A stretch of 10,164 nucleotides of DNA, from contig JBJMMA010000028.1 in NCBI GenBank assembly GCA_045805065.1, positions 1 to 10,164 of the forward strand, given 5' to 3'. Shown one piece after another: positions 1 through 10,164 of this stretch. The notes below the pieces were generated by a model that worked only from the letters and a program-made list of their open reading frames with translations, did not search any database and was not told the origin of the DNA. The position numbers and the translations under genes were made by a program. The stretch is from Bdellovibrionia bacterium (GTDB lineage: Bacteria; Bdellovibrionota; UBA1018). Numbering within the stretch: the stretch's first letter is position 1; the number at the start of each line of letters is the position of its first letter.

Positions 1-317
1 AATGAAACGGTGGTCGAAATGCGGACCAGGCCCTGCTCGCCGCTTTGAAGTTCGCGAAGCTTTTTGCCAGCTTCTTCTGACAGAGCGAAGATCCGGCGCG
101 TGTATTCGAGAAGGGCCACGCCTTCATCGGTGAGTCGAACACTGCGGGTGCTCCGCTTGAAGAGGTCCACTCCCAGATGGGCCTCAAGTCTTTGGACCTG
201 TTTGCTGAGAAGCGCTTTGGAGGTCGCAAGCGAGTTTGCGGCCGCGGTAAAGCCTCCCTCAATGGCTACGGAATGAAATGCAAGCAGATCCTCAATTCTG
301 CGGCTGATTGTTTCCAT
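1..317 (-). CDS. LysR-family transcriptional regulator, N-terminal part (3' end outside window)
   Basis: Manual translation from ATG at 317: METISRRIEDLLAFHSVAIEGGFTAAANSLATSKALLSKQVQRLEAHLGVDLFKRSTRSVRLTDEGVALLEY... This matches the LysR HTH pattern (F..AA..L..S...S.QV..LE..LG..LF.R.TR.V.LT..G). The frame is open to position 1, and the gene is divergent from an SDR. Confidence 0.96.
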   Translation of the reverse strand, partial: METISRRIEDLLAFHSVAIEGGFTAAANSLATSKALLSKQVQRLEAHLGVDLFKRSTRSVRLTDEGVALLEYTRRIFALSEEAGKKLRELQSGEQGLVRISTTVS

Positions 318-328
318 ATGTTGACAAT
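307..328. promoter_or_regulatory. Putative LysR binding site (interrupted inverted repeat)
   Basis: ATTGT(307-311)-N12-ACAAT(324-328) contains T-N11-A (T312..A324). It overlaps the LysR start codon in the divergent control region, a typical autoregulatory position. Confidence 0.5.
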
Positions 329-402
329 ATGTCTCGTATTGTAGCTTTTTGCAAGTCGCCGCTCGGTGTAGATTGGGAGTCAGAAAGAGAGAATCCTATT
401 TT

Positions 403-1005
403 ATGAAAGTCATTTTATTTGGTGCAACTGGAGCGATCGGAACCCAAGTTCAAAAGGCGCTTGAGACTTCGGGACACGAGGTCATCGGCGTTGGGCGCAA
501 AACCGGCAGATATCAGGCTGACATGGGCGATCGTGAGAGCCTGCGCAAGCTCTACCAGACGATTGGATCCTTTGATGCCGTAGTCAGTGCCGCGGGCGAA
601 GTGGCATTTGCGCCGCTCGAGAGACTGGGCGCCGAGGAGTGGAAGCGGTCTCTGGAAGGCAAGTTTCTGGGTCAGGTGCAGCTGGTTCAGGAGGCGATTC
701 CTTACATTCGCGAAAAAGGGTCCTTTACTCTCGTGTCAGGCATTCTGGCGGATGAGCCTATAGTCGCGGGAGCGGCGGCCACAGCGGTTAATCGCGCCAT
801 CGAAGGATTTGCTCTGGCTGCTGCGATTGAGCTTCCTAAGGGGTTGAGAATTAACGTTGTCAGTCCAACCGTTCTTGAAGAGTCCATGAAGACGTATGGT
901 CCCTTTTTTCCCGGTTTTATTCCCGTGCCTGGCGCTAAGGTGGCACAAGCTTTCTTGAAGTCGATCCTGGGTGCTCAGACGGGGGAGGTTTATCGGGTAT
1001 TCTGA
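403..1005 (+). CDS. Short-chain dehydrogenase/reductase (PRK07578/Lin1944-like subgroup), 200 aa
   Basis: ATG403 begins MKVILFGATGAIG (Rossmann motif). DAVVSAAG, GSFTLVSG, RINVVSP and C-terminal FFPGF..GAQTGEVY fit this subgroup. ATG403 is preferred to TTG349 because the Rossmann beta-1 strand starts there, behind a purine-rich tract. Confidence 0.93.
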   Translation: MKVILFGATGAIGTQVQKALETSGHEVIGVGRKTGRYQADMGDRESLRKLYQTIGSFDAVVSAAGEVAFAPLERLGAEEWKRSLEGKFLGQVQLVQEAIPYIREKGSFTLVSGILADEPIVAGAAATAVNRAIEGFALAAAIELPKGLRINVVSPTVLEESMKTYGPFFPGFIPVPGAKVAQAFLKSILGAQTGEVYRVF

Positions 1006-1090
1006 GTGTTTTTATTTCAATTGTTGATAAATACGTTGAGTTTCAGGCCCGCTTGTTTTAGCTCTACGCTGCAAATCGCACGGGAGTGGT

Positions 1091-1756
1091 ATGAAAAAAG
1101 TCAGCTTGAATCGTATGCATCAGGTGGTCAGCTTTCTGATCGTATTCGTTTCCCTTCAGTTCTTAGGAAGTTCAGCGTTCGCCGATTCGTACTTCCATAA
1201 CAATCGATTGGACGCCACGGTTCCTGCGAACTGCAGGGAAATGGAAATTCGCAATTTCTATACACTCTCTCGTTTCATGATTTACGGAATTCAGGGCGCT
1301 CGCGCTGCCGGATTCACTCACGAGTATCCGATCACCCGCCGAGATGCCGAGAGTCTTTGGGGAACTTTGAAATCAGAGAGCCTTCATGGCACCCCTAAGT
1401 TAACTGGTAATACGGCAACTCTTTACGCCTACGGGCGCCAGATGGGATTCGACTTTGTGAATGAAGGAGAAGTGCTGGAGCTTCTGGCAATTCTTCAGCT
1501 CAAACAAGAGTATCCGGACCGTGAGTACTTTCTGACTGGAAGCGTGGCATACGGCGAGGCCGGCGTTCCAAATATGGGCGAGCTCGATATCGTCGTCGCC
1601 AGACGCTCAGACTGCGGCGTTGTCGCTGTAGGCGAGGCAAAGCTTGGCGTGAATCAAAGACCGCACGCAGCTCAGCAGCTCCGTCGTTTCATGCAGTTCC
1701 TTCAGCACAAGCTCTGTCTGCGCGGCGAAAAAGCTCCAGTCTGCACCTTGCGATAA
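1091..1756 (+). CDS. Secreted hypothetical protein with PD-(D/E)XK nuclease-like motif, 221 aa
   Basis: GGGAG RBS. Basic N-region, hydrophobic core and AFA|DS signal peptidase I site. The C-terminal half has EGEVLE (helix), GELDIVV, VGEAK and AAQQLRRF. Confidence 0.7.
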   Translation: MKKVSLNRMHQVVSFLIVFVSLQFLGSSAFADSYFHNNRLDATVPANCREMEIRNFYTLSRFMIYGIQGARAAGFTHEYPITRRDAESLWGTLKSESLHGTPKLTGNTATLYAYGRQMGFDFVNEGEVLELLAILQLKQEYPDREYFLTGSVAYGEAGVPNMGELDIVVARRSDCGVVAVGEAKLGVNQRPHAAQQLRRFMQFLQHKLCLRGEKAPVCTLR

Positions 1757-1762
1757 GTAGGC

Positions 1763-2170
1763 TTAGTCTTTTCGGGCCTGAAGTGTTTTCGCGAAGCGAT
1801 GATACGACGGCAAGATTTCCTGAAAGAAGTCAAACCGCCGAAAGGTGAGTTCACGGAACTCTTTCCCGTCGCTCACGCTGTCCATATGGGAAATGATTCG
1901 GTAAATCGGTCCGACGATCAGGTTTGAAACGAAAACGCCTGCCAGGACAAAAATTGAAAAGCCGACGCAGATCCCGAGAGCGGCCGGATAATTCCCCGAC
2001 TGACCCATTGAGCCACTGACAGCTTCCCGATAGATCGATTCTGCCCATAGAGTAAAAAGCGCTAGGCTTACGCCGTAAACGAGAAAGACGATCTGGACTT
2101 TCACGTTAATCAAAAGCTTACGTCTTTTGTAAGCGGGCTTGGATGGGATCAGGTTTTCGTTGTTTTCCAT
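1763..2170 (-). CDS. Small inner-membrane protein, 2 TM helices plus HAMP-like tail, 135 aa
   Basis: GAGG RBS. Basic KRRKLLIN N-terminus, hydrophobic segments IVFLVYGVSLALFTLW and AALGICVGFSIFVLAGVFV, then SNLIVGPIYRI..HM..V..G.....L.FRRFDFFQEI (HAMP-like pattern). Confidence 0.75.
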   Translation of the reverse strand: MENNENLIPSKPAYKRRKLLINVKVQIVFLVYGVSLALFTLWAESIYREAVSGSMGQSGNYPAALGICVGFSIFVLAGVFVSNLIVGPIYRIISHMDSVSDGKEFRELTFRRFDFFQEILPSYHRFAKTLQARKD

Positions 2171-2188
2171 AGGGCCTCATTTTTTTCT

Positions 2189-2223
2189 TCGCCAATTGAA
2201 AATATTTACCAGTATAATTACTG
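2189..2223 (+). promoter_or_regulatory. Possible sigma70 promoter for the pilin-like gene, -10 inside a palindrome
   Basis: TCGCCA(2189-2194)-N18-TATAAT(2213-2218). The -10 lies within CAGTA-TAAT-TACTG (2210-2223) in an AT-rich divergent intergenic region. Confidence 0.35.
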
Positions 2224-2286
2224 AAACCAGCACCATCAGATTTCACGGATTCGACGTATTTTCTTTGTTTAACGTAGTATTCAAGG

Positions 2287-3042
2287 ATGGATCGAGTGAT
2301 TGTGAACATAAAGCGCGAATTTTCGAACGTTAAACAAAATATCGATAAAACTAAAAACGTTTACGCCAATGAAAGTGGCTTTTCGATGATCGAGATCATG
2401 GTGGCATTCGGTCTCGCCGCCATCCTTCTTTTGGGCATAACGACAACCACGACGCTGACTCACAACAACACGAGCAACATGCATGGCGTTTTGTATCGCG
2501 ACGAACTTGTAAGACAGGTGCAGCAGCTCTCATCCACTCCTCAGACTCTTCAGAAGACATTGGCTTACAGTGCAAATACTTCCTTACGTGCATGCGTTCA
2601 GCCACCGGGAACGGCAGGAGCTAACCCAGGTTGTACGCATCTGACGGAGTATCCTGTCGTGCTGACGGATATTGCAGGATCTGCCGTGACGGGACCTGCT
2701 GCTATTCCGATCACTGATGAATCCCTGAGCGGTACTCCGCTTTTTTATTCCGTCATGGACGGAAGTTTGTGTCGTAATGGCGCGGTTCCCGTCACATCTC
2801 CCGATAGTCGGTGCGCCCTTGAGGTGGTGACGAGCTTTGTTCCAACCTGCACTGACGCGTCCAATTACTGTCAGGATCCTAAGAAGATCTCGATTACCTT
2901 CCAGTACCGCGTTCGGTTGGCTACGATTGCAAGCGGGCCGAAGCCTCTGGGCGGTGCGCAGCTGAAGTCCATTATCGCTCCTCCGGCTCCTTTGAGTTAC
3001 GTGAATGCGATGTCCATTCAGAGCGGGTTTTTCACTAACTGA
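2287..3042 (+). CDS. Type IV pilin-like / pseudopilin protein with prepilin cleavage-methylation motif (start may be GTG2296 or GTG2302)
   Basis: NESG|FSMIEIMVAFGLAAILLLGI gives G-1, F+1, E+5 and a hydrophobic helix (G at 2377-2379). A charged leader precedes it and a globular domain with 6 Cys follows. Confidence 0.88.
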   Translation: MDRVIVNIKREFSNVKQNIDKTKNVYANESGFSMIEIMVAFGLAAILLLGITTTTTLTHNNTSNMHGVLYRDELVRQVQQLSSTPQTLQKTLAYSANTSLRACVQPPGTAGANPGCTHLTEYPVVLTDIAGSAVTGPAAIPITDESLSGTPLFYSVMDGSLCRNGAVPVTSPDSRCALEVVTSFVPTCTDASNYCQDPKKISITFQYRVRLATIASGPKPLGGAQLKSIIAPPAPLSYVNAMSIQSGFFTN

Positions 3043-3045
3043 AAA

Positions 3046-4596
3046 TCAGTGTGTGGTTACGCCGCCCGCAACGCCCGAATAGCTTCCGAGAGTGGCGCCG
3101 TTATAAAGGTCTACGCTTCCCGTCATTGTATTGATCTGCGATATCGATCCGCCATAGGCTTTAACACTTCCAGTGACATTGGTCAGGGTGCCAACAGTCG
3201 TATTGTAAAGTGTAAGATTTCCGGTGAAGTTGGATAGATTAGCGATTGTGCCGCCATAGATCGTCAGCTGGCCAATGTTAAAGTTTGAGCCGCTATTGAG
3301 AATCGAAGCGTTTTGCAGTCCAACGAAGGATGCCGTGACGTTTGAGATATCATTCACGTTGAATCCGCAAAGCATGAACCTTCCAGAGGTAATGTTGCTA
3401 AAGGATACTGCAGTGGGTGCTGTGGCACCGCTTGTAATCCATCCGCGGTGAACTGCGATGAAGTAATCACTGGTAGCTGTGTTGGTGATGTTGGAGAACT
3501 GGGAGACCGAATCAGCGTTTGCGTACAGATAGCCCGTGACGTTGGATACATCGCTTACGGTATGCGCGACGATGTAAGTGTGCGGCGAAGTGATATTTGA
3601 GACGCAACCGATGGTTTTGGCGTTCAGACTCACGCCAGCGCATGGCGCGGTCACGTTGGAAACGGATGAGATATTACTTGCCGTAGCCCATGTGTTTCCA
3701 GTGATGTTGGAGATATCAGATATATTTTCATCTGCTGCATGCAGGTCATGCGTGATGTTGGTGTATTGCACGGCACACGTGCCCAAGGTGGGAATGGTGT
3801 CGTAAGCAATCGCGGGATTGCCAAGCGCCTTCATCGAGTTGCAGAGCTTTGAGCCAGTCGATGGATCAAAGACCGTGATGTCTCCGGCAGTTGTTGGATC
3901 AACGATAGGATTGTAAGGATCGTTTGGATCGCCAGGAGATGCGGATTGCTGGGACACTCCGGTTTGAATGGCTGAGAGTGGAACCGTAAGCAACGGCACA
4001 GACTCGATAGGTTTCAATGCAATCTTATTGGGCAAATCAATGCCAGGCTTTTGTTCCACCAGGAAGCCGATGCTCACGATTGCGGAGGGTTTGCCTTTGC
4101 AGTCAGTTGCTCCTCCGCAACTGATTGTGAACCATGTCGTTGCTTGAATCTGGCAAGTCGCCGAGCTTGAGGCATCGCAAAGGCTTCCGGTGAGGGCGTC
4201 ATAACTGACGGGATTGGCTGCTGTGCCCGAAATTTGATTTCCGCGCGTATCAAAAATCTTGAGGTCATGTTTATTGTTTCCTGAAGCATCGACTGTGTTG
4301 CATGGCGTGGTGTTGCTTGCGTCGATGCAGCCTAGCAGCTGGGAAGAAGGGTCCGTCTCTGCGGATTTTAGCAAAACTGAAGGGATGGACACGGAGGCTC
4401 TCAGTGAGTTGGCGATTGCGTCACGACTGTTCCGAACGCGATCGTTCTGAAGCATGTTGTTCATATTGCGTGAGCGCGTAGTCGAGGAATAAAGCATGGA
4501 GCCGGCTGCAACGCTCAGTCCCGCAAGAACGATGAGGGAAGTGAAGCCCGCGCTTTTGTTTTCCCCCGATAGGATTCCTTTGGAAACCTTGCTCAT
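3046..4596 (-). CDS. Pilin-like protein lacking Glu+5 (PilX/GspK-style N-terminus) with 6-Cys domain and C-terminal beta-solenoid repeats, 516 aa
   Basis: ATG4596 follows a TAAGGGG RBS and is preferred to ATG4647. The 17-aa leader ends KSAG|FTSLIVLAGLSVAAGSMLY. The next domain aligns with the 2287-3042 protein, then a Pro/Asp linker (SPGDPNDPYNP) and about 13 repeats of mostly 17-20 aa. Confidence 0.82.
   Translation of the reverse strand: MSKVSKGILSGENKSAGFTSLIVLAGLSVAAGSMLYSSTTRSRNMNNMLQNDRVRNSRDAIANSLRASVSIPSVLLKSAETDPSSQLLGCIDASNTTPCNTVDASGNNKHDLKIFDTRGNQISGTAANPVSYDALTGSLCDASSSATCQIQATTWFTISCGGATDCKGKPSAIVSIGFLVEQKPGIDLPNKIALKPIESVPLLTVPLSAIQTGVSQQSASPGDPNDPYNPIVDPTTAGDITVFDPSTGSKLCNSMKALGNPAIAYDTIPTLGTCAVQYTNITHDLHAADENISDISNITGNTWATASNISSVSNVTAPCAGVSLNAKTIGCVSNITSPHTYIVAHTVSDVSNVTGYLYANADSVSQFSNITNTATSDYFIAVHRGWITSGATAPTAVSFSNITSGRFMLCGFNVNDISNVTASFVGLQNASILNSGSNFNIGQLTIYGGTIANLSNFTGNLTLYNTTVGTLTNVTGSVKAYGGSISQINTMTGSVDLYNGATLGSYSGVAGGVTTH
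3049..3768 (-). repeat. Protein-level tandem repeat (S/T)N(I/V/F)T, period about 17-20 aa
   Basis: Anchors TNIT, SNIT, SNVT, SNIT, SNVT, SNIT, SNIT, SNVT, SNFN, SNFT, TNVT, NTMT, SGVA occur with spacings 17,17,20,18,17,32,18,19,18,17,17,18. The repeat is degenerate at DNA level. Confidence 0.85.
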
Positions 4597-4614
4597 ATTT
4601 TGCCCCTTACTTTT

Positions 4615-4643
4615 AGGATATGATGTCCGACAGAAAGCGTCAA
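4615..4643 (-). promoter_or_regulatory. Putative sigma70 promoter for the 516-aa pilin-like gene
   Basis: Minus strand TTGACG(4643-4638)-N17-TATCCT(4620-4615), just upstream of the RBS and ATG4596. It also supports the 4596 start. Confidence 0.55.
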
Positions 4644-4833
4644 GCATCGGGGTGTATGGATATGATTCAGGTTCAATGAGTTAAGCTTATAAAAGCTCAG
4701 CGCGAATTTGGTAAAGTAAAGTTATGTAATTTAATAAAGCGAGCGGCGCTCGGTACCTATTTTAGGTGAATACGCCTGAGCTCCCAAGAGATACTTGCCG
4801 CAAGGATCAATCATCGGTTATCTCTGAGGCCAC

Positions 4834-5994
4834 ATGACATCCGTTAGGGCATCGCTTAAGCGCTTCTTCTCTCCCTTTCTCTTGGCATTTACCGCGATCA
4901 TCTTGGGAGTTCTCACTTATGTCGCGCTCCGCGCATCGACATCTGTCTGGCAGTGGCTGGTGCTTTTCGGATTAGGAGCTCTTTTCTGGACGCTTCCCGC
5001 GATCCAGTGGCGATCTGAGGCTGACCTTCATTCGCGAGGCCAACTTCTTTTGCAGCAAGCGAGTTATCTCAGCATGGGTTTTCTCAGCTGGATGCTTGTG
5101 ATTACAGTGATTCGCGATTTGAGTTTGCTAGGGATCAAGCTGATTGAAGCTGTGTCTTGGGCTGCGCCTGAATCGGCGTCAAGGTTGGCTCATCAGACAT
5201 CGGGAGTCTGGATGTTTGCGGCAGCGGGACTCTGCACTCTTTGGGGAATTCTTGTAGCAAGCAAAGGCCTTCGTATTCGCGAAGTGAGAGTTCCTGTCGA
5301 GGGCCTGCCGCGTGAACTCGAAGGCTTCAAGATCGCACAGATCAGTGATCTGCATGTGGGGCCAACGATTGGGCGCGATTATGTGGAGAAAGTAGTTGGA
5401 CTTGTCAGCAAGCTTAAGCCTGATCTCACGGTTTTGACCGGAGATATCGTGGATGGCAATATCGCTAATTTTCGCGAAGCCGTGCAGCCATTCACCCGTC
5501 TCGTGCCTCAGGGTAAAGTCTACTTTGCTCCCGGAAACCATGAGTACTACTGGGACATTCATCTTTGGTTAAAAGAGCTATCCCGACTTGGGATCAAAAT
5601 TCTTCTTAACCAGGGTGAGGCTGTCGAGGCGCGTGGCGCGAAGCTCTGGGTGGGAGGTGTGACCGATCCTGCTGCAGGTCATGCTCCTTCTGTGGAGAAG
5701 GCCTCACAAGGAAGTCAGAATGCAGACTTCAAGCTCCTCCTATCGCATCGTCCTGAAATCGCAAGTGACGCGAAGAAAGCAGGCTTTGACCTTCAGCTCT
5801 CCGGACACACGCATGGAGGTCAATTTTTTCCATGGACCATCGTTGTGAAGTTCTTTCACGAATATGTAACGGGTCTCTATCAGGATGGCTCACTTCATGT
5901 TTACGTGAGTCCGGGCACTGGTACGTGGGGCCCTCCGATTCGCGTAGGTACAACTCCTGAGCTGACCTGCATTGAGTTGCTAAGGAAAGAATAA
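4834..5994 (+). CDS. Membrane-anchored metallophosphoesterase (calcineurin-like, YkuE/YaeI type), 386 aa
   Basis: All five motifs are present: QISDLH, LTGDIVD, PGNHE, LLSHRP, SGHTHGGQ, plus YVSPGTGTWGPPIR. About 4 N-terminal hydrophobic helices; GAGG RBS. Confidence 0.95.
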   Translation: MTSVRASLKRFFSPFLLAFTAIILGVLTYVALRASTSVWQWLVLFGLGALFWTLPAIQWRSEADLHSRGQLLLQQASYLSMGFLSWMLVITVIRDLSLLGIKLIEAVSWAAPESASRLAHQTSGVWMFAAAGLCTLWGILVASKGLRIREVRVPVEGLPRELEGFKIAQISDLHVGPTIGRDYVEKVVGLVSKLKPDLTVLTGDIVDGNIANFREAVQPFTRLVPQGKVYFAPGNHEYYWDIHLWLKELSRLGIKILLNQGEAVEARGAKLWVGGVTDPAAGHAPSVEKASQGSQNADFKLLLSHRPEIASDAKKAGFDLQLSGHTHGGQFFPWTIVVKFFHEYVTGLYQDGSLHVYVSPGTGTWGPPIRVGTTPELTCIELLRKE

Positions 5995-6013
5995 GGGACT
6001 ACCATCAGGAGAT

Positions 6014-6934
6014 ATGCTCCATTTTCGCTCCCAGGCGATCGGATGGGCGCTCTCATTTTTCATCTCGCTGAGTCTTCTGAGCGGAGCTTCTACTGCGGTC
6101 GCAAATGAATACGAACTTTTCTCAATAGGAACGGATGGCCTGGCTCATCCGGTGGCTGATTACGATGCGATTGTCAGCTCGTTGAAAAAGGGGGACGTGG
6201 TCAGATTCACCGACGGAAAGTCCTATCGATTGACTGCAAATCTGCACGATGGGCAAGGCTCCGTGAGTCGAATATTCTCCGTGAAGGCACCTGCCGGTGC
6301 CGCTTTACGCTTGCCACGAAAATCCAATCCTCTTTTTGTTGAGATGATCAATCGCTCAATTGACGGATCCAAGGCACTGGCTGAGGCAGGGGTTCCTGTG
6401 GTCTCCATTCAAGGGTCAAAAAGAGGAGAGTATCTTTTGGTCGATCAGATCAAACCGGGATTGATCAAGGCTGATGCGTTTTTTCGCGAGCCTGATCAAG
6501 TCAGTCGATCCGTTCGAAAAAAAATGGTGAGTCGATTGATTGAGTTTGCATCAACCACTGCGTATTTCAAGCACATTGGAGATTTTGGGCTTTCTCAAAT
6601 GGCATACGATGCTTTCAGTGATCGATGGGTGCTCCTTGACTGGACCGCGGGGCATGAGATTCCGGCTTCTCAAGCGGACTCAAAGAACTGCTTTGAGCAC
6701 GTTTTTGAACCAGTTCTGAAAAATCAAAATCCATCCCGGAAAAAGTGGATTGAATCCATCCGGGGAAAGATCGACCAGGCCATTCGCGAGGAGCGGCAGA
6801 AAATTCAGTCAGACCCCTTTCTTCTGGAGCGATTAAAACGGGTTGAAGAACAAGTAGTGAGAACTCCTCGTGCAAGTCAGGCTAGCTTCATGAATTGCAT
6901 GATTTTTAATATGTCTCACTCGATCGAGTTTTAA
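6014..6934 (+). CDS. Secreted hypothetical protein with atypical protein-kinase-like motifs, 306 aa
   Basis: AGGAG RBS; signal peptide ending AVA|NE. Motifs occur in kinase order: GQGSVSRIF, AALRLP, AGVPVV, YLLVDQI, HIGDFGLSQM, WVLLDW. Confidence 0.68.
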   Translation: MLHFRSQAIGWALSFFISLSLLSGASTAVANEYELFSIGTDGLAHPVADYDAIVSSLKKGDVVRFTDGKSYRLTANLHDGQGSVSRIFSVKAPAGAALRLPRKSNPLFVEMINRSIDGSKALAEAGVPVVSIQGSKRGEYLLVDQIKPGLIKADAFFREPDQVSRSVRKKMVSRLIEFASTTAYFKHIGDFGLSQMAYDAFSDRWVLLDWTAGHEIPASQADSKNCFEHVFEPVLKNQNPSRKKWIESIRGKIDQAIREERQKIQSDPFLLERLKRVEEQVVRTPRASQASFMNCMIFNMSHSIEF

Positions 6935-6935
6935 A

Positions 6936-8345
6936 TCACGGAAGTATCGGAAAAGTGTAAACCCCCTGTCGATACGGAAGCGTTGTCGGTTGAAGCGCGA
7001 CGGAGAACGTCGGAAAAGCAACTCCATTCAGGAACGTCATACCCGTATAGTCACCGATCAAGCGGCCGCGAGCGGTCGTTGAAATCCACTGAGGCTGCAT
7101 CGGACCTGCAAGATGAGTCGGCGCCGTCCAGGTGTTTCCACTGTCTATGGATGAAGTGTAATAAGTATCGATCTGACAAGCGTTCTCATCAGTCAGGCAC
7201 GCGCCAGCGGATACGGTGTAAAAGACGAGTCCCAACTTTCCATTGCCATTTGAATTATAGGATGGGTCTGCTGCGATTCCAGGAAAAATATGATTGAGCG
7301 ACGCGCTCACCGGAAACGTGTTGATGCGAGTTGGCGCGCTCCATGTGATCCCATCGGTCGAGGTCGAGAGCACCAGTCCATTGGCAGTGCATTGAGTCTC
7401 AAACCGGCAGTCAAACCAGGTGAGATAGAGCTTGCCGGAGGCGTCAATCGTCACGGATGGATTAGGATCCTGTCTCAGGCTTGCGCGCGCCGGTGCGGTT
7501 TGTGGCGTTGCAATTCTCTGCGAGCCGCTCCAGGTCGTGCCGCCATCGTCAGAGTAAAACACATAAAACTGAGAGAAATCCGTGTTTGAAATCGGCACAA
7601 TCACTCGGCCAGTGGGCATCACAATGGGCTGTCCCGCGATGCCTTGGAGCTGGTCGGCGGTTGTTTTTGATGCTTCCCAGGTTTTTCCGCCATCGGTGGA
7701 GCGGGTCATGTAGATCACGCCTGAGATATTATCATTATACTGTGTGTAACAGGTGCCATAATGGGGGGATTGCGGAAAGTTATCGCAGGCAGTCCAGTTC
7801 TTATCGGGTTCAGGCCCTGATGCTACCGTGATGGGATTACCAAAAGTTTTTCCATCATCACTGGAGAGGCTGACATAAATCGCATTCTGCCCGCCACCAC
7901 CTCCCGAGTAAGAAAGAATCCAGTTCGAATGCTTGGCATCGTAAGCGACGACCGGATCCGTGACTTCGCCAATTGATCCGCCTGCGTAGGTTGTCGTGTT
8001 AGGGAGTGCGCCGCGCTGCCAAGTAGCTCCTGCGTCATTGGAAACTGCCCAGCCGATATTGGTGACGCCTCCGGTTTCAAGGCGCGCGATATGATATCCT
8101 GCGACTAAGGTATTGCCATGGGATGCGATGTTGGTTTCCATCGCGGTCTCATGCTGCCCGTCTGGGTTTGCGTATGGATCAAAACTCAACTGAGTCAGAG
8201 CGTTCCCGGGAGCGGTTTGAAACTGGTGCGATTTCAAGTCTTCTGAGTTGCATCCGAAGAGGAGAGCAGTAAAAGACGCACCGAATAACAGTAGCGTGCT
8301 GAGCTTTTCTGAAATCTTACCATGCGTCACTGTGATCGTGGTCAT
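6936..8345 (-). CDS. BNR/Asp-box repeat beta-propeller lipoprotein (sialidase-like family), up to 469 aa
   Basis: Lipobox LLFG|C (Cys32) after a hydrophobic stretch. Six Asp-boxes: SNDAGATW, SSDDGKTF, STDGGKTW, SDDGGTTW, STDGITW, SIDSGNTW. Also DP-V-YD, DK-W and GDY motifs. The exact start is uncertain (no clear RBS). Confidence 0.88.
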   Translation of the reverse strand: MTTITVTHGKISEKLSTLLLFGASFTALLFGCNSEDLKSHQFQTAPGNALTQLSFDPYANPDGQHETAMETNIASHGNTLVAGYHIARLETGGVTNIGWAVSNDAGATWQRGALPNTTTYAGGSIGEVTDPVVAYDAKHSNWILSYSGGGGGQNAIYVSLSSDDGKTFGNPITVASGPEPDKNWTACDNFPQSPHYGTCYTQYNDNISGVIYMTRSTDGGKTWEASKTTADQLQGIAGQPIVMPTGRVIVPISNTDFSQFYVFYSDDGGTTWSGSQRIATPQTAPARASLRQDPNPSVTIDASGKLYLTWFDCRFETQCTANGLVLSTSTDGITWSAPTRINTFPVSASLNHIFPGIAADPSYNSNGNGKLGLVFYTVSAGACLTDENACQIDTYYTSSIDSGNTWTAPTHLAGPMQPQWISTTARGRLIGDYTGMTFLNGVAFPTFSVALQPTTLPYRQGVYTFPILP

Positions 8346-8357
8346 CGGAGGCCTGGG

Positions 8358-8373
8358 TGCAATGGTTGTTCCC
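8358..8373 (-). promoter_or_regulatory. Putative sigma54 (-24/-12) promoter for the BNR lipoprotein
   Basis: Minus strand GGGAACAACCATTGCA is GG-N10-GC with GGAAC and TTGCA halves (consensus TGGCAC-N5-TTGCW). Confidence 0.5.
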
Positions 8374-8384
8374 TGATAGCCGGT

Positions 8385-8400
8385 TGGTGCGGCGCTAGCG
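8385..8400 (+). promoter_or_regulatory. Possible weaker sigma54 promoter for the 8435 gene
   Basis: TGGTGCGGCGCTAGCG is GG(8386-8387)-N10-GC(8398-8399), about 35 nt upstream of ATG8435. The -12 half is TAGC rather than TTGC. Confidence 0.3.
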
Positions 8401-8434
8401 TTTATAAGAAGCGCTGTGATAAGCTCAGAACATC

Positions 8435-8917
8435 ATGAAGAAGCAGCGGATCCGACATCTTTTTCCTCATCATGGCGCAATCCAGGCAGAAACAAATGTA
8501 CCGCGTGGATGGATCAGTCCCCAGGGGCGTTTTCTGGAGACCAAACAACATTGGGCGAGTATCAATGCTCACTTTCGCAGACCAGATGCCCGCTCATTTT
8601 CAAAAGAGGAAGAACCTGAGGAAGCGGAACAGGCTGAAAAGAACGCGCACCTGGCTTATCAGCTGGGCTGGATCAGTGTTGGCCATTCAGGCAGGATGAA
8701 TGCGGTCGCTCATCAAAGAACCTTCGCAACAAGCACTCATCCAGCTGTTGGAACACTGAGGGAGCTTCTGGCCGAAGTGCCGCATCTCACGATTCAAATC
8801 GAGCTTCAGATTGGTGAGTTCATTCCTTCACGCGGAGTGCATGAGGACTTCGATTTGCGAGACTATGATCTGGATTACTTGATCAAGCGCGGAAGACTCA
8901 AGCATACCATCGGCTGA
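8435..8917 (+). CDS. Hypothetical cytoplasmic protein with twin GWIS motifs, 160 aa
   Basis: Longest ORF filling the gap between flanking genes without overlap. Protein-like composition with RGWISPQGRF...HW...AYQLGWISVG; His-rich. Confidence 0.72.
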   Translation: MKKQRIRHLFPHHGAIQAETNVPRGWISPQGRFLETKQHWASINAHFRRPDARSFSKEEEPEEAEQAEKNAHLAYQLGWISVGHSGRMNAVAHQRTFATSTHPAVGTLRELLAEVPHLTIQIELQIGEFIPSRGVHEDFDLRDYDLDYLIKRGRLKHTIG

Positions 8918-8927
8918 TTGAGCCAGT

Positions 8928-10164
8928 TTAAGTTTTTGTTCGAGCGTCTCTTGGGAGTGTCACGCGAAAAGTAGTGCCACGTTTTTTGTCGCTCTGGACG
9001 TCTACGCGACCCCGATGTGCTTCAGCCACCCCTCGGACTAAGGTTAGACCCAGTCCCCATCCTTTCCTGTGACTGGATTCAACGGCCTTGCTTCTGACAA
9101 ACGGATCAAAGAGTTGCTTTTGATCATCAGGCGAGATGGGCTCACCCAAGTTGTGAACGGATATTTCGATCATTGATTCATGGGCTGATATTTTCAAAGT
9201 CACGGGAGTGTCGTGAAAACCGTATTTGATGCCGTTGCTGAGAAGATTTTCGATCAGACGGTAGATGTTTTTACAGCTCCAGAAGCCGATCAAGGAATCG
9301 GGAAGCTCTCGACGAAAACGATCGCCATGAACGGAAATCATTTCCTCACAAACGCTGTTTGCGATCTGTGTGAGATCGCACTCTTCGATCTCGATGGGCA
9401 AACCCTTGCCCGCGCGAATGCGACTGGCATCCAGAAGGTCGTCGATCATCTTGTCTGCTCGGCTCAGGCTATCTATAATTCTTGACGCAAGACTTGGGAT
9501 ACGGTCCAGGTGATCCGGGTGTCTTGCGATCATTTGAGCAGTCATGCGCGATGCGCTGAGAGGGTTTTTCAAATCATGAGAAAGCGTATTCATGAACTGT
9601 CGCAATTCGTGCTCGCTTTGGATTCTTTCTTTCTCCAGGCGTTTTATCGGGCTGATGTCCCGGAAAGACAGGATGCCAAAAGCGCGGTGCCCGAAGGCCG
9701 CGGGCAGAAGGGTTCCGTCGATGATGAAATGTGACGTACTCGTAGAAGTTTCCCAGCAAAGCTCAAAATCACGAAGAACCTCGCCTCGAAGAACGCGATG
9801 CCGTGGCATTTGCTCTGGCGGAATGATCTCGCCGTTGGTGTCATAAGCGCGAAACGCATGAGTTCCGGATTCTGGTAGGACGGTAGGGATCGTGACCTGA
9901 AGATTCTTTGTCGCATCGTTCTTGAAGAAGATCGAACGACTTTCTGAATCCAAAAGAATGACAGGAGTAGGGACCGAGTTCAAAACCATCTCATACCAGG
10001 CGCGCTCATTGCGTATGGATTCGTTGGATCGCTTGAGAGAATCTTCAAACTGCTTTCTCTCCGTTATCTCAAGCACTGTTCCGCGCATCCGGACCGGCTT
10101 TCCCTTTTCATCGTAATAAGGGCGGCCTTTTCCCAGAAGCCAGTGAAGACTTCCATCGGGCCAG
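8928..10164 (-). CDS. PAS/PAC-domain sensor histidine kinase (5' end outside window)
   Basis: The frame is open beyond ATG10088 to the edge, giving WPDGSLHWLLGKGRPYYDEKGKPVRMRGTVLEITERK (PAC motif). A further PAS domain ends in RDIS. H-box SHDLKNPL, N-box ENLLSNGIKY, G1 VHNLGEPI, F-box LFDPF, G2 GWGLGL. Confidence 0.96.
   Translation of the reverse strand, partial: WPDGSLHWLLGKGRPYYDEKGKPVRMRGTVLEITERKQFEDSLKRSNESIRNERAWYEMVLNSVPTPVILLDSESRSIFFKNDATKNLQVTIPTVLPESGTHAFRAYDTNGEIIPPEQMPRHRVLRGEVLRDFELCWETSTSTSHFIIDGTLLPAAFGHRAFGILSFRDISPIKRLEKERIQSEHELRQFMNTLSHDLKNPLSASRMTAQMIARHPDHLDRIPSLASRIIDSLSRADKMIDDLLDASRIRAGKGLPIEIEECDLTQIANSVCEEMISVHGDRFRRELPDSLIGFWSCKNIYRLIENLLSNGIKYGFHDTPVTLKISAHESMIEISVHNLGEPISPDDQKQLFDPFVRSKAVESSHRKGWGLGLTLVRGVAEAHRGRVDVQSDKKRGTTFRVTLPRDARTKT

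Follow-up and report, generated by a model that had tools for sequence, protein, structure and literature searches.

Contig JBJMMA010000028.1 of the Bdellovibrionia bacterium assembly GCA_045805065.1 (Bdellovibrionota; UBA1018) was analysed over its positions 1 to 10,164, a stretch of 10,164 nucleotides that is referred to below as the window. The subject of the analysis is an open reading frame (ORF) at 6014..6934 on the + strand, which begins with ATG and is listed as encoding 306 amino acids followed by a stop codon. On the basis of the ORF list, a 100% self-match and its homologues, the whole ORF is taken as the gene of a predicted exported protein with a kinase fold. An AGGAG motif resembling a Shine-Dalgarno sequence is read in the DNA at 6007..6011 (+ strand), at a short spacing of 2 nucleotides 5' of the ATG, and the next in-frame start is Met111. 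A scan of the + strand over 4600-7200 revealed no sigma-70-like site. A search of sequencing runs pointed to only four soil-metagenome DNA runs as candidate carriers, all belonging to one study, and listed no RNA run.

Predicted export signal

Conservation counts refer throughout to 138 of 153 family proteins that were aligned, the 15 proteins longer than 420 amino acids being excluded. The alignment includes family members that share only 22-35% identity with the 6014..6934 protein.

Residues 1-30 (6014..6103, + strand) have the features of a Sec-type signal peptide, as judged from the sequence, column conservation and a hand rule, with cleavage predicted after A-V-A. The N-terminus can be divided into MLHFRSQ, AIGWALSFFISLSLL and SGASTAVA, the last followed across the cleavage point by NE, and these stretches correspond to the n, h and c regions of a signal peptidase I substrate. 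The n-region contains one Arg (R5), the hydrophobic h-region comprises 15 residues (residues 8-22), and S-G-A-S-T-A-V-A then leads up to N31. Ala occupies both -3 (A28) and -1 (A30), and the +1 residue is not Cys, so there is no lipobox Cys. The protein thus appears to combine the features expected of a Sec substrate cleaved by signal peptidase I, namely positive charge in the n-region, a hydrophobic core in the h-region and small side chains at both -3 and -1.

The same traits recur across the family. Ala stands at the A28 column in 83 of the 138 members and at the A30 column in 114. A crude hand rule, which combines a hydrophobic 9-mer with small residues at -1 and -3 at the aligned site, finds a signal-peptide-like N-terminus in 99 of 123 evaluable members; 15 more are N-terminally truncated. 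Most of the 24 members that fail the rule retain a hydrophobic N-terminal segment, and the homologues P0002 and P0004 share the N-terminal layout of the 6014..6934 protein. In the AlphaFold2 (AF2) model described below, the segment is a helix with a lower predicted local distance difference test score (pLDDT). Sec-type export is a predicted trait of the family, and the cleavable Sec signal proposed for this protein in an initial annotation is supported by the sequence and the hand rule as a feature common to its relatives.

Kinase-like fold, predicted active site and C-terminal tail

The AF2 model built from the 138-row alignment (mean pLDDT 91.7; predicted template-modelling score, pTM, 0.84) is bilobal and kinase-like, and the model of a paralogue from the same genome has a pLDDT of 92.1 and a pTM of 0.86. 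Its elements are ordered as in a small kinase. An N-terminal extension (residues 31-69) precedes beta-1 (70-76), which leads through the Gly loop to beta-2 (85-90) and beta-3 (96-101). These elements are followed by alpha-C (106-125), beta-4/beta-5 (132-144), the hinge and alpha-D/alpha-E (165-180), and then by the catalytic loop (187-195), two short strands, D209, a long helix (240-266) and two more helices. The last helix of the model spans residues 287-301, with pLDDT 57-70. The beta-rich N-lobe with alpha-C, the hinge and the helical C-lobe of a protein-kinase-like (PKL) domain are thus all represented in the model.

Conserved residues also mark two of these elements. The N-terminal extension of the N-lobe (6104..6220, + strand) is modelled as short strands and one helix at pLDDT 97-98, and contains the conserved residues L35, F36, Y50, G60, D61, F65 and G68. 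The long C-lobe helix (6731..6811, + strand) carries a near-invariant Arg, R261 (6794-6796), found in 122 of 138 members.

Structural comparison of the model points in the same direction. Foldseek returned 176 matches in the PDB at E<=1e-3, with PRPK/Bud32 (5e-7), RIO2 (7e-6) and HopBF1 (4.6e-5) at the top. VIA-align, which is independent of Foldseek, gave Bud32 (4ww5) at Z 12.0 with a root-mean-square deviation (rmsd) of 3.6 over 192 aligned residues, followed by MTR kinase (Z 11.2), Rio1 (10.9), APH(2'') (10.8), WaaP (9.3), HopBF1 (9.3; rmsd 3.6, 154 aligned) and OspG (8.2). The 50 rows listed by VIA-align were all kinase-fold entries, as judged by their titles. An independent model from the Atlas has Kdo, RIO, Bud32 and Pkinase proteins as its structural neighbours, with a template-modelling (TM) score of about 0.5. 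The fold is predicted to be a two-lobed kinase fold that is nearest to the small kinases of the Bud32, RIO, HopBF1 and APH type, and the kinase-like architecture that the initial annotation had deduced from motif order is borne out by both the AF2 model and its Foldseek and VIA-align matches.

The predicted active site is assembled from five conserved segments, all on the + strand, whose positions as first annotated proved exact when checked against the DNA. The end of beta-1, the Gly-rich loop and beta-2 (residues 77-88, 6242..6277) are placed by conservation and by alignment on the kinase Gly loop. The motif GQGSVSRIF begins here with G80 at 6251; G80 is conserved in 117 of 138 members and G82 in 130, and position 87 is Val or Ile in 133. 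A Gly-rich loop of the form G80-x-G82 is present, with Thr or Ser in place of the third Gly. In beta-3, A97-L98-R99-L100-P101 (6302..6316), conservation and profile alignments set an Arg where the ATP-binding Lys sits. A97-L98-R99 occupies 6302-6310, with R99 encoded by cgc at 6308. The Lys of the PKL motif VAIK is accordingly replaced by Arg in 134 of 138 members, the remainder of the column being K 2, G 1 and gap 1; the A97 column is Ala in 84 and Val in 47, and P101 is found in 120. One of the exceptions, P0004, is 52% identical to the 6014..6934 protein and reads A-L-K at a site that is otherwise unchanged.

Beta-5 and the hinge are formed by YLLVDQI (residues 140-146, 6431..6451), identified from conservation and a model strand at 140-144, with Y140 in 105 of 138 members and Glu or Asp at position 144 in 118. 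The catalytic loop H187-I-G-D190-F-G-L-S-Q195 (residues 187-195, 6572..6598), placed by conservation and alignment on the HRD motif, contains D190 (gat at 6581), which is Asp in 137 of 138 members. The Q195 column holds Q 121, N 12 and other residues 5, so that the Asp of the HRD loop is kept and the Asn is represented by a conservative replacement, Gln. Lastly, W205-V-L-L-D209-W (residues 205-210, 6626..6643) supplies a candidate metal-binding Asp equivalent to that of DFG, D209 (at 6638), which aligns with the DFG Asp and is conserved in 137 of 138; W205 is found in 135 and W210 in 110. Arg99 and Gln195 occur together in 115 of 138 members.

The register of these residues was examined by profile alignment. 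With hhalign, the family was compared with a Pkinase alignment built from 19 kinase domains of related genomes, giving a probability of 95.7% and an E of 1e-8 over 142 columns, in which R99 falls on the Lys of VAIK, D190 and D209 on the Asp residues of HRD and DFG respectively, and Q195 on the catalytic-loop Asn. A profile of five long-form members matched STK33 in the PDB (E 5.8e-5), with A-L-R on A-I-K, while the family profile matched TTK (5e-5), the S. aureus kinase 4eqm (Stk1; 2.7e-4) and HopBF1 (0.02). We infer from the hhalign and STK33 alignments that Arg99 stands at the Lys position. The substitutions of Arg for Lys and Gln for Asn that were initially annotated thus agree with the hhalign and STK33 alignments, with the Lys of P0004 and with the 12 members that keep Asn, and the two Asp residues named alongside them have turned out to be near-invariant. 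The motifs are not chance resemblances: they are the most conserved columns of the family and coincide with the structural elements expected of them in a confidently predicted kinase-like model.

Asn195 occurs with Leu191 (G-D-L-x3-N) in 6 of 12 Asn members, compared with 5 of 121 Gln members, and Gln tends to occur with Phe; the association has a Fisher p of 5e-5, calculated from related sequences that are not independent. G-D-L-x3-N is what we take to be the catalytic-loop pattern of Bud32, RIO and APH. The existence of this minority form suggests that G-D-F-x3-Q is derived from a working loop. Columns 191 and 195 seem to have changed as one unit.

A further conserved element, missed by the initial annotation, is a short, amphipathic C-terminal tail. 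The tail helix (residues 287-306, 6872..6931, + strand), defined by conservation and the model, carries a lone Cys, C295 (6896-6898), that is conserved in 126 of 138 members. Between 4 and 97 amino acids (median 11) come after the conserved Cys, and positions +3/+4 and +7/+8 among them are hydrophobic. The Cys is usually the only one of the mature protein, as 94 of 138 members contain a single Cys after residue 30. The linker between R261, in the last core helix, and the Cys varies from about 4 to about 190 residues. Placement of the tail is poor in both models (pLDDT 57-70 in the 6014..6934 protein and 61-66 in the paralogue). Since the Cys is kept despite the variable linker, and the tail has a low pLDDT in both models, it looks like a flexible, separately conserved module that is not part of the fold. 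Such a tail would act in trans, as a disulfide or other covalent tether, as a membrane or partner anchor, or as a latency switch.

Long forms of 433-464 amino acids (L009 and L011-L014; L035-L038 from Bacteriovorax/Halobacteriovorax) contain an inserted helical region of about 170 amino acids that has no Pfam match. The insert lies between the kinase-fold domain and the tail, which still reads S-C-x3-I-x-S-F-F or similar.

The family, its relatives and its genomic context

Conventional searches place the protein in no established group. No model in Pfam or NCBIfam matches the 6014..6934 protein, and a word-indexed search found only three close homologues, at 77, 58 and 52% identity. An exhaustive HMMER search over 1.84 billion cluster representatives recovered 412 at E<=1e-3, of which 156 at E<=1e-10; they stand for clusters at 50% identity, and the best 150 of the 412 representatives were inspected. 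A profile search of a set of 5.8 billion proteins added only one further member. When each of the 138 members was scanned against Pfam, no family was matched by more than 3 members and none at better than E 9.9e-5. PF00069 was absent from the families matched by these members, as it was for the query. APH (PF01636) was touched by 2 of 138 members at E >= 0.011 and RIO1 (PF01163) by 1 of 138 at 0.047, and PF22303 (HopBF1/OspG type) was not among the 25 families listed for the scanned members. PF06293 (Kdo) and PF10707 (YrbL) were found in 0 of 121 genomes of the phylum, and both were detected in the E. coli control.

Other searches returned little. As a single sequence, the protein had no meaningful match in the PDB; a match to isoeugenol synthase at E 0.08 was dismissed as chance. 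Four close homologues used as queries found no relative in genome contigs or metagenome contigs, a tblastn search of the protein found nothing in phage or plasmid collections, and PHROGs gave just a 25-residue match at chance level. Structural matches in BFVD are generic viral kinases. Two viral clusters appear among the Atlas feature neighbours (0.95-0.96) and were given no weight, as no alignment-based search confirmed a viral relative. The single publicly named short-form member, from a Bdellovibrionales metagenome-assembled genome (MAG), is annotated 'hypothetical protein', and a search confined to the open-access literature found no paper describing an exported kinase-fold family of this kind. 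The family belongs to none of the named families tested, and differs from them by combining export, an R/D/Q/D site and a Cys tail.

Comparison with known kinase-fold systems makes these differences explicit. Bud32/PRPK and RIO proteins are the best structural matches and share a minimal architecture with a small C-lobe and no long activation segment. However, the exported family departs from them in the Arg and Gln that replace Lys and Asn, in its Sec signal and C-terminal Cys tail, and in an N-terminal extension of 40 residues. Bud32 and RIO are cytoplasmic or nuclear, and the family has no hidden Markov model (HMM) match to PF06293 or PF01163 above threshold. APH, MTR kinase and WaaP are also strong structural matches. 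The I/L-x-D-W/F sequence around the second Asp of the exported family presumably resembles the APH pattern, but these enzymes are cytoplasmic and keep Lys and Asn. To Pkinase (PF00069) the family is related by profile-profile homology with four catalytic positions in register; that homology is seen only between profiles, all 138 members lie below the Pfam threshold, and the activation loop, the APE motif and the alpha-G to alpha-I region are missing.

HopBF1 and OspG/NleH are alike in being small bacterial kinase folds that act outside their producer. An OspG-family cluster is found among the Atlas feature neighbours at 0.93, and the profile E for HopBF1 is only 0.02. In plant or animal pathogens, HopBF1, OspG and NleH are delivered by type III secretion; they are not known to carry a Sec signal, and their Lys and Asn are retained. 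The exported family, in contrast, has a Sec signal and occurs in predatory environmental bacteria, and its sequences do not place it with the HopBF1/OspG group.

Arg at the beta-3 Lys position has precedents. KSR1 and EphB6 have Arg there and still bind nucleotide, and for the bacterial pseudokinases ActPs2 and DYD, also with beta-3 Arg, nucleotide binding is predicted in models (PMC12599244). Lani_1194/NoeA has R for K72 and an unidentifiable alpha-C Glu, and its authors propose a kinase with a conserved active site (PMC9758233). In ActPs2 the HRD Asp is gone and the DFG motif is absent from most members (PMC12599244), whereas both Asp residues are present in the exported family. DYD proteins, which are kinases that associate with the membrane in actinobacteria and firmicutes, lack the alpha-C Glu (PMC12599244); the exported family has L-L-D-W-T and no DYD motif. 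Lani_1194 is cytoplasmic, is fused to a methyltransferase and keeps Asn (PMC9758233). Within the accessible parts of PMC12599244 and PMC9758233, ActPs2, DYD, KSR1, EphB6 and Lani_1194 are not described as Sec-exported or Cys-tailed.

All members that carry an organism name come from Bdellovibrionota. Long forms occur in Bacteriovorax, Halobacteriovorax and Bacteriovoracaceae records and one short form in the Bdellovibrionales MAG, and these records identify Bdellovibrionota as the phylum of the family. A search of 200 further genomes from the phylum gave a match at E<=1e-3 in 47, and a count from the table of matches puts 33 of these at <=1e-20. A single genome can carry as many as four copies, and some entire families among the genomes searched lack any. 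The family behaves, as far as these sequences indicate, as a fast-evolving accessory set of exported proteins.

Several copies and variants were observed beside the query. The paralogue in the same genome lies on another contig (G000:C143:17340-18107; L002:1483-2331), has 282 amino acids and is 31% identical; its motifs are G-C-G-G-T-T, A-L-R-I-P, I-G-D-F-K-A-D-Q, L-I-D-W and a Cys tail, and its gene adjoins an M14 carboxypeptidase gene and a 505-amino-acid ORF without a Pfam match. A few copies in other genomes of the phylum have internal stop codons (G057:C2:480571-481280; G007:C49:16809-17444; G191:C65:1709-2290) and are probable pseudogenes, which would be consistent with turnover in an accessory family. 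Tandem arrays are exemplified by P0005 (949 amino acids), with four matched stretches and three L-x-D-W motifs, and by P0009 (508 amino acids) and P0103 (517 amino acids), with two motif copies each. One region of P0005 scored 25.7 bits against YrbL-PhoP_reg (PF10707), under the 31.5-bit cut-off. P0084, a metagenome protein of 582 amino acids, fuses a signal peptide and a calcineurin-like metallophosphoesterase to the kinase-fold domain, with the Cys tail kept.

In the window, a gene for a membrane-anchored metallophosphoesterase (4834..5994, + strand; PF00149, E 3.3e-15) lies upstream of the kinase-fold gene across a 19-nucleotide gap. Co-transcription of the two is possible, as the gap contains no promoter-like site on the + strand. 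A stretch rich in Lys and Arg follows the last transmembrane segment of the phosphoesterase, and by the positive-inside rule its catalytic domain is probably cytoplasmic. The window and P0084 phosphoesterases are not similar to each other, and a metallophosphoesterase neighbour was found at 0 of 12 other family loci. With one fusion and one adjacency, the link to metallophosphoesterases is a weak lead. The flanks of the 12 other loci are mixed, and include genes for an M14 peptidase, prephenate dehydrogenase, radical SAM protein, primase, GNAT protein, low-molecular-weight (LMW) phosphatase, Hsp70-like protein, lipoate ligase, integrase and others.

The remaining genes of the window are also varied. 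Convergent with the kinase-fold gene, with 1 nucleotide between the stop codons and no terminator-like site between them, is a gene at 6936-8345 (- strand) for a 469-amino-acid BNR/sialidase-like protein (PF13088, E 6.6e-21) with a lipobox-like L-F-G-C. A 533-amino-acid ORF at 3046-4647 (- strand) has a hydrophobic G-F-T-S-L-I-V-L near its N-terminus, no Pfam or NCBIfam match, and about ten S-N-[IV]-T repeats (such as DISNITGN, VSNVTA and FSNITN) in its C-terminal half; it adjoins a prepilin-type gene (2287-3042, PF07963) and may encode a pilus-associated adhesin. Two + strand ORFs have no family match, one at 1091-1756 (221 amino acids) with a signal-peptide-like N-terminus and the other at 8435-8917 (160 amino acids).

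Proposed activity outside the producer's cytoplasm

The reading that we consider the best, with a probability of roughly 55%, is that the 6014..6934 gene encodes a Sec-exported minimal PKL domain that is an active metal-dependent kinase-fold transferase working outside the cytoplasm of its producer. The predicted nucleotide and metal site is kept in a derived form, consisting of a GxG loop, beta-3 with A-x-Arg instead of A-x-Lys, a catalytic-loop Asp with Gln instead of Asn downstream of it in G-D-F-x3-Q, and the DFG-type Asp of L-L-D-W. Because the catalytic Asp and both metal ligands are near-invariant even across members only 22-35% identical to the query, it most likely is an active transferase that requires a divalent metal and draws on a nucleoside triphosphate (NTP). 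Phosphotransfer would be the default chemistry. As export appears to be a trait of the family, the domain would act once it has left the cytoplasm. Where it does so we can only guess from the lifestyle of the phylum: it may stay in the envelope of the producer or, as seems more plausible for a predator, act inside prey cells or on their surface, where nucleotides can be had. The initial annotation had proposed an effector acting in another cell or on scavenged nucleotides, or a pseudokinase with non-canonical activity after the examples of SelO and SidJ; these functional proposals are conjectural, in contrast to its supported structural part.

A number of observations weigh against this reading. 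The periplasm is usually considered devoid of ATP. At the 12 other loci no gene neighbour recurs that would point to a pathway, and the alpha-C helix (106-125) has no conserved acidic column, positions 110, 113 and 117 being mixed. Replacement of the beta-3 Lys by Arg is a classic mark of a pseudokinase (PMC12599244). A gapless HMMER alignment to TTK sets R99 two residues before the Lys, and a shallow hhalign comparison with only two kinase segments likewise does so; the mapping of Arg on Lys is favoured because of the A-x-[RK] pattern, the A-L-K of P0004 and the varying length of the beta-2/beta-3 hairpin within the family. The signal peptide call depends on the hand rule and not on SignalP. 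Sampling of phyla was confined to Bdellovibrionota and to E. coli K-12, the latter without a match. Finally, a genome of the same genus (G201; 95% complete, in 490 contigs) has only a relative that is 37% identical, which suggests that the 6014..6934 gene is accessory.

The main alternative, a serious one though we regard it as doubtful, is an exported pseudokinase or binding module, which would bind a nucleotide or another anionic ligand, or scaffold a partner, without transfer. Its role, whether in the envelope or in prey, would be that of a sensor, an adaptor or an inhibitor. An ATP-poor periplasm would suit such a non-catalytic role. So would the near-universal Arg for the beta-3 Lys (134/138), the Gln in place of Asn and the lack of an identifiable alpha-C Glu, and the same Lys-to-Arg change is found in ActPs2, in DYD and in the ATP-binding KSR1 and EphB6 (PMC12599244). 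However, each of the two Asp residues is retained in 137 of the 138 members, even where identity to the query is only 22-35%, in contrast to ActPs2, from which the HRD Asp and, in most members, the DFG motif are missing (PMC12599244). In addition, Gln interchanges with Asn (Asn in 12 of 138) and Lys with Arg, from which the site looks like one that is being tuned rather than one that is decaying.

It is distinctly unlikely that the domain instead has a non-phosphotransferase chemistry (AMPylation-like, nucleotidyl or acyl-phosphate) or uses a donor other than ATP, such as pyrophosphate in the envelope. Arg and Gln would here reshape the phosphate and metal site, and the Cys would be a covalent acceptor, a tether or a cysteine switch. 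Kinase folds are capable of other chemistry, as in SelO and SidJ, and alpha-kinases have Gln at the equivalent metal-ligand position. In the family itself, two longer side chains are fixed together (115/138), and a lone Cys is conserved (126/138) on a flexible tail, poorly placed in both AF2 models, whatever the length of the linker, the forms of 433-464 amino acids included. The phosphoesterase fusion in P0084 and the location of the window gene 19 nucleotides after a metallophosphoesterase gene also fit this chemistry, but they amount to one fusion and one adjacency, with 0 of 12 other loci in support and a window domain that is probably cytoplasmic, and the Cys could simply make an intermolecular disulfide.

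It is highly improbable that the protein is an ordinary cytoplasmic small-molecule or protein kinase whose N-terminal hydrophobic stretch reflects a mis-called start or an uncleaved anchor: the 24 of 123 evaluable members that fail the hand rule and the AGGAG only 2 nucleotides from the ATG would agree with this, but there is no other in-frame start before Met111, P0002 and P0004 have the same layout, the A-x-A columns are conserved, most of the failing members are still hydrophobic at the N-terminus, and an uncleaved N-in anchor would also place the domain outside the cytoplasm.

The boldest reading is a proposal that we hold to be rather unlikely. Predatory Bdellovibrionota would then export a kinase-fold family that has been rebuilt, through Arg and Gln, for extracytoplasmic work with a non-ATP donor or by non-phosphoryl chemistry on prey or envelope, and the Cys tail would be its covalent element. 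The Cys might receive the group when the protein modifies itself, close over the metal site in the manner of a cysteine switch, or hold a partner through a disulfide. If true, the family would define, by its mechanism, a new class among the secreted kinase-fold enzymes of bacteria.

To our knowledge, Sec-exported kinase-fold enzymes are rare in bacteria. Secreted kinase folds such as Fam20C, CotH, the type III/IV effector kinases, SelO and SidJ have each revealed unexpected chemistry, and the secreted proteins of predatory bacteria act on other bacteria. The family described here is large (412 clusters) and joins predicted export, a conserved R/D/Q/D tetrad, a lone C-terminal Cys and predatory hosts. 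If it is active, it would offer a tractable route to the function of kinase folds outside the bacterial cytoplasm, and to whether Arg and Gln can substitute for Lys and Asn. If it is inactive, it would be an exported pseudokinase of wide occurrence, and that too would be out of the ordinary.

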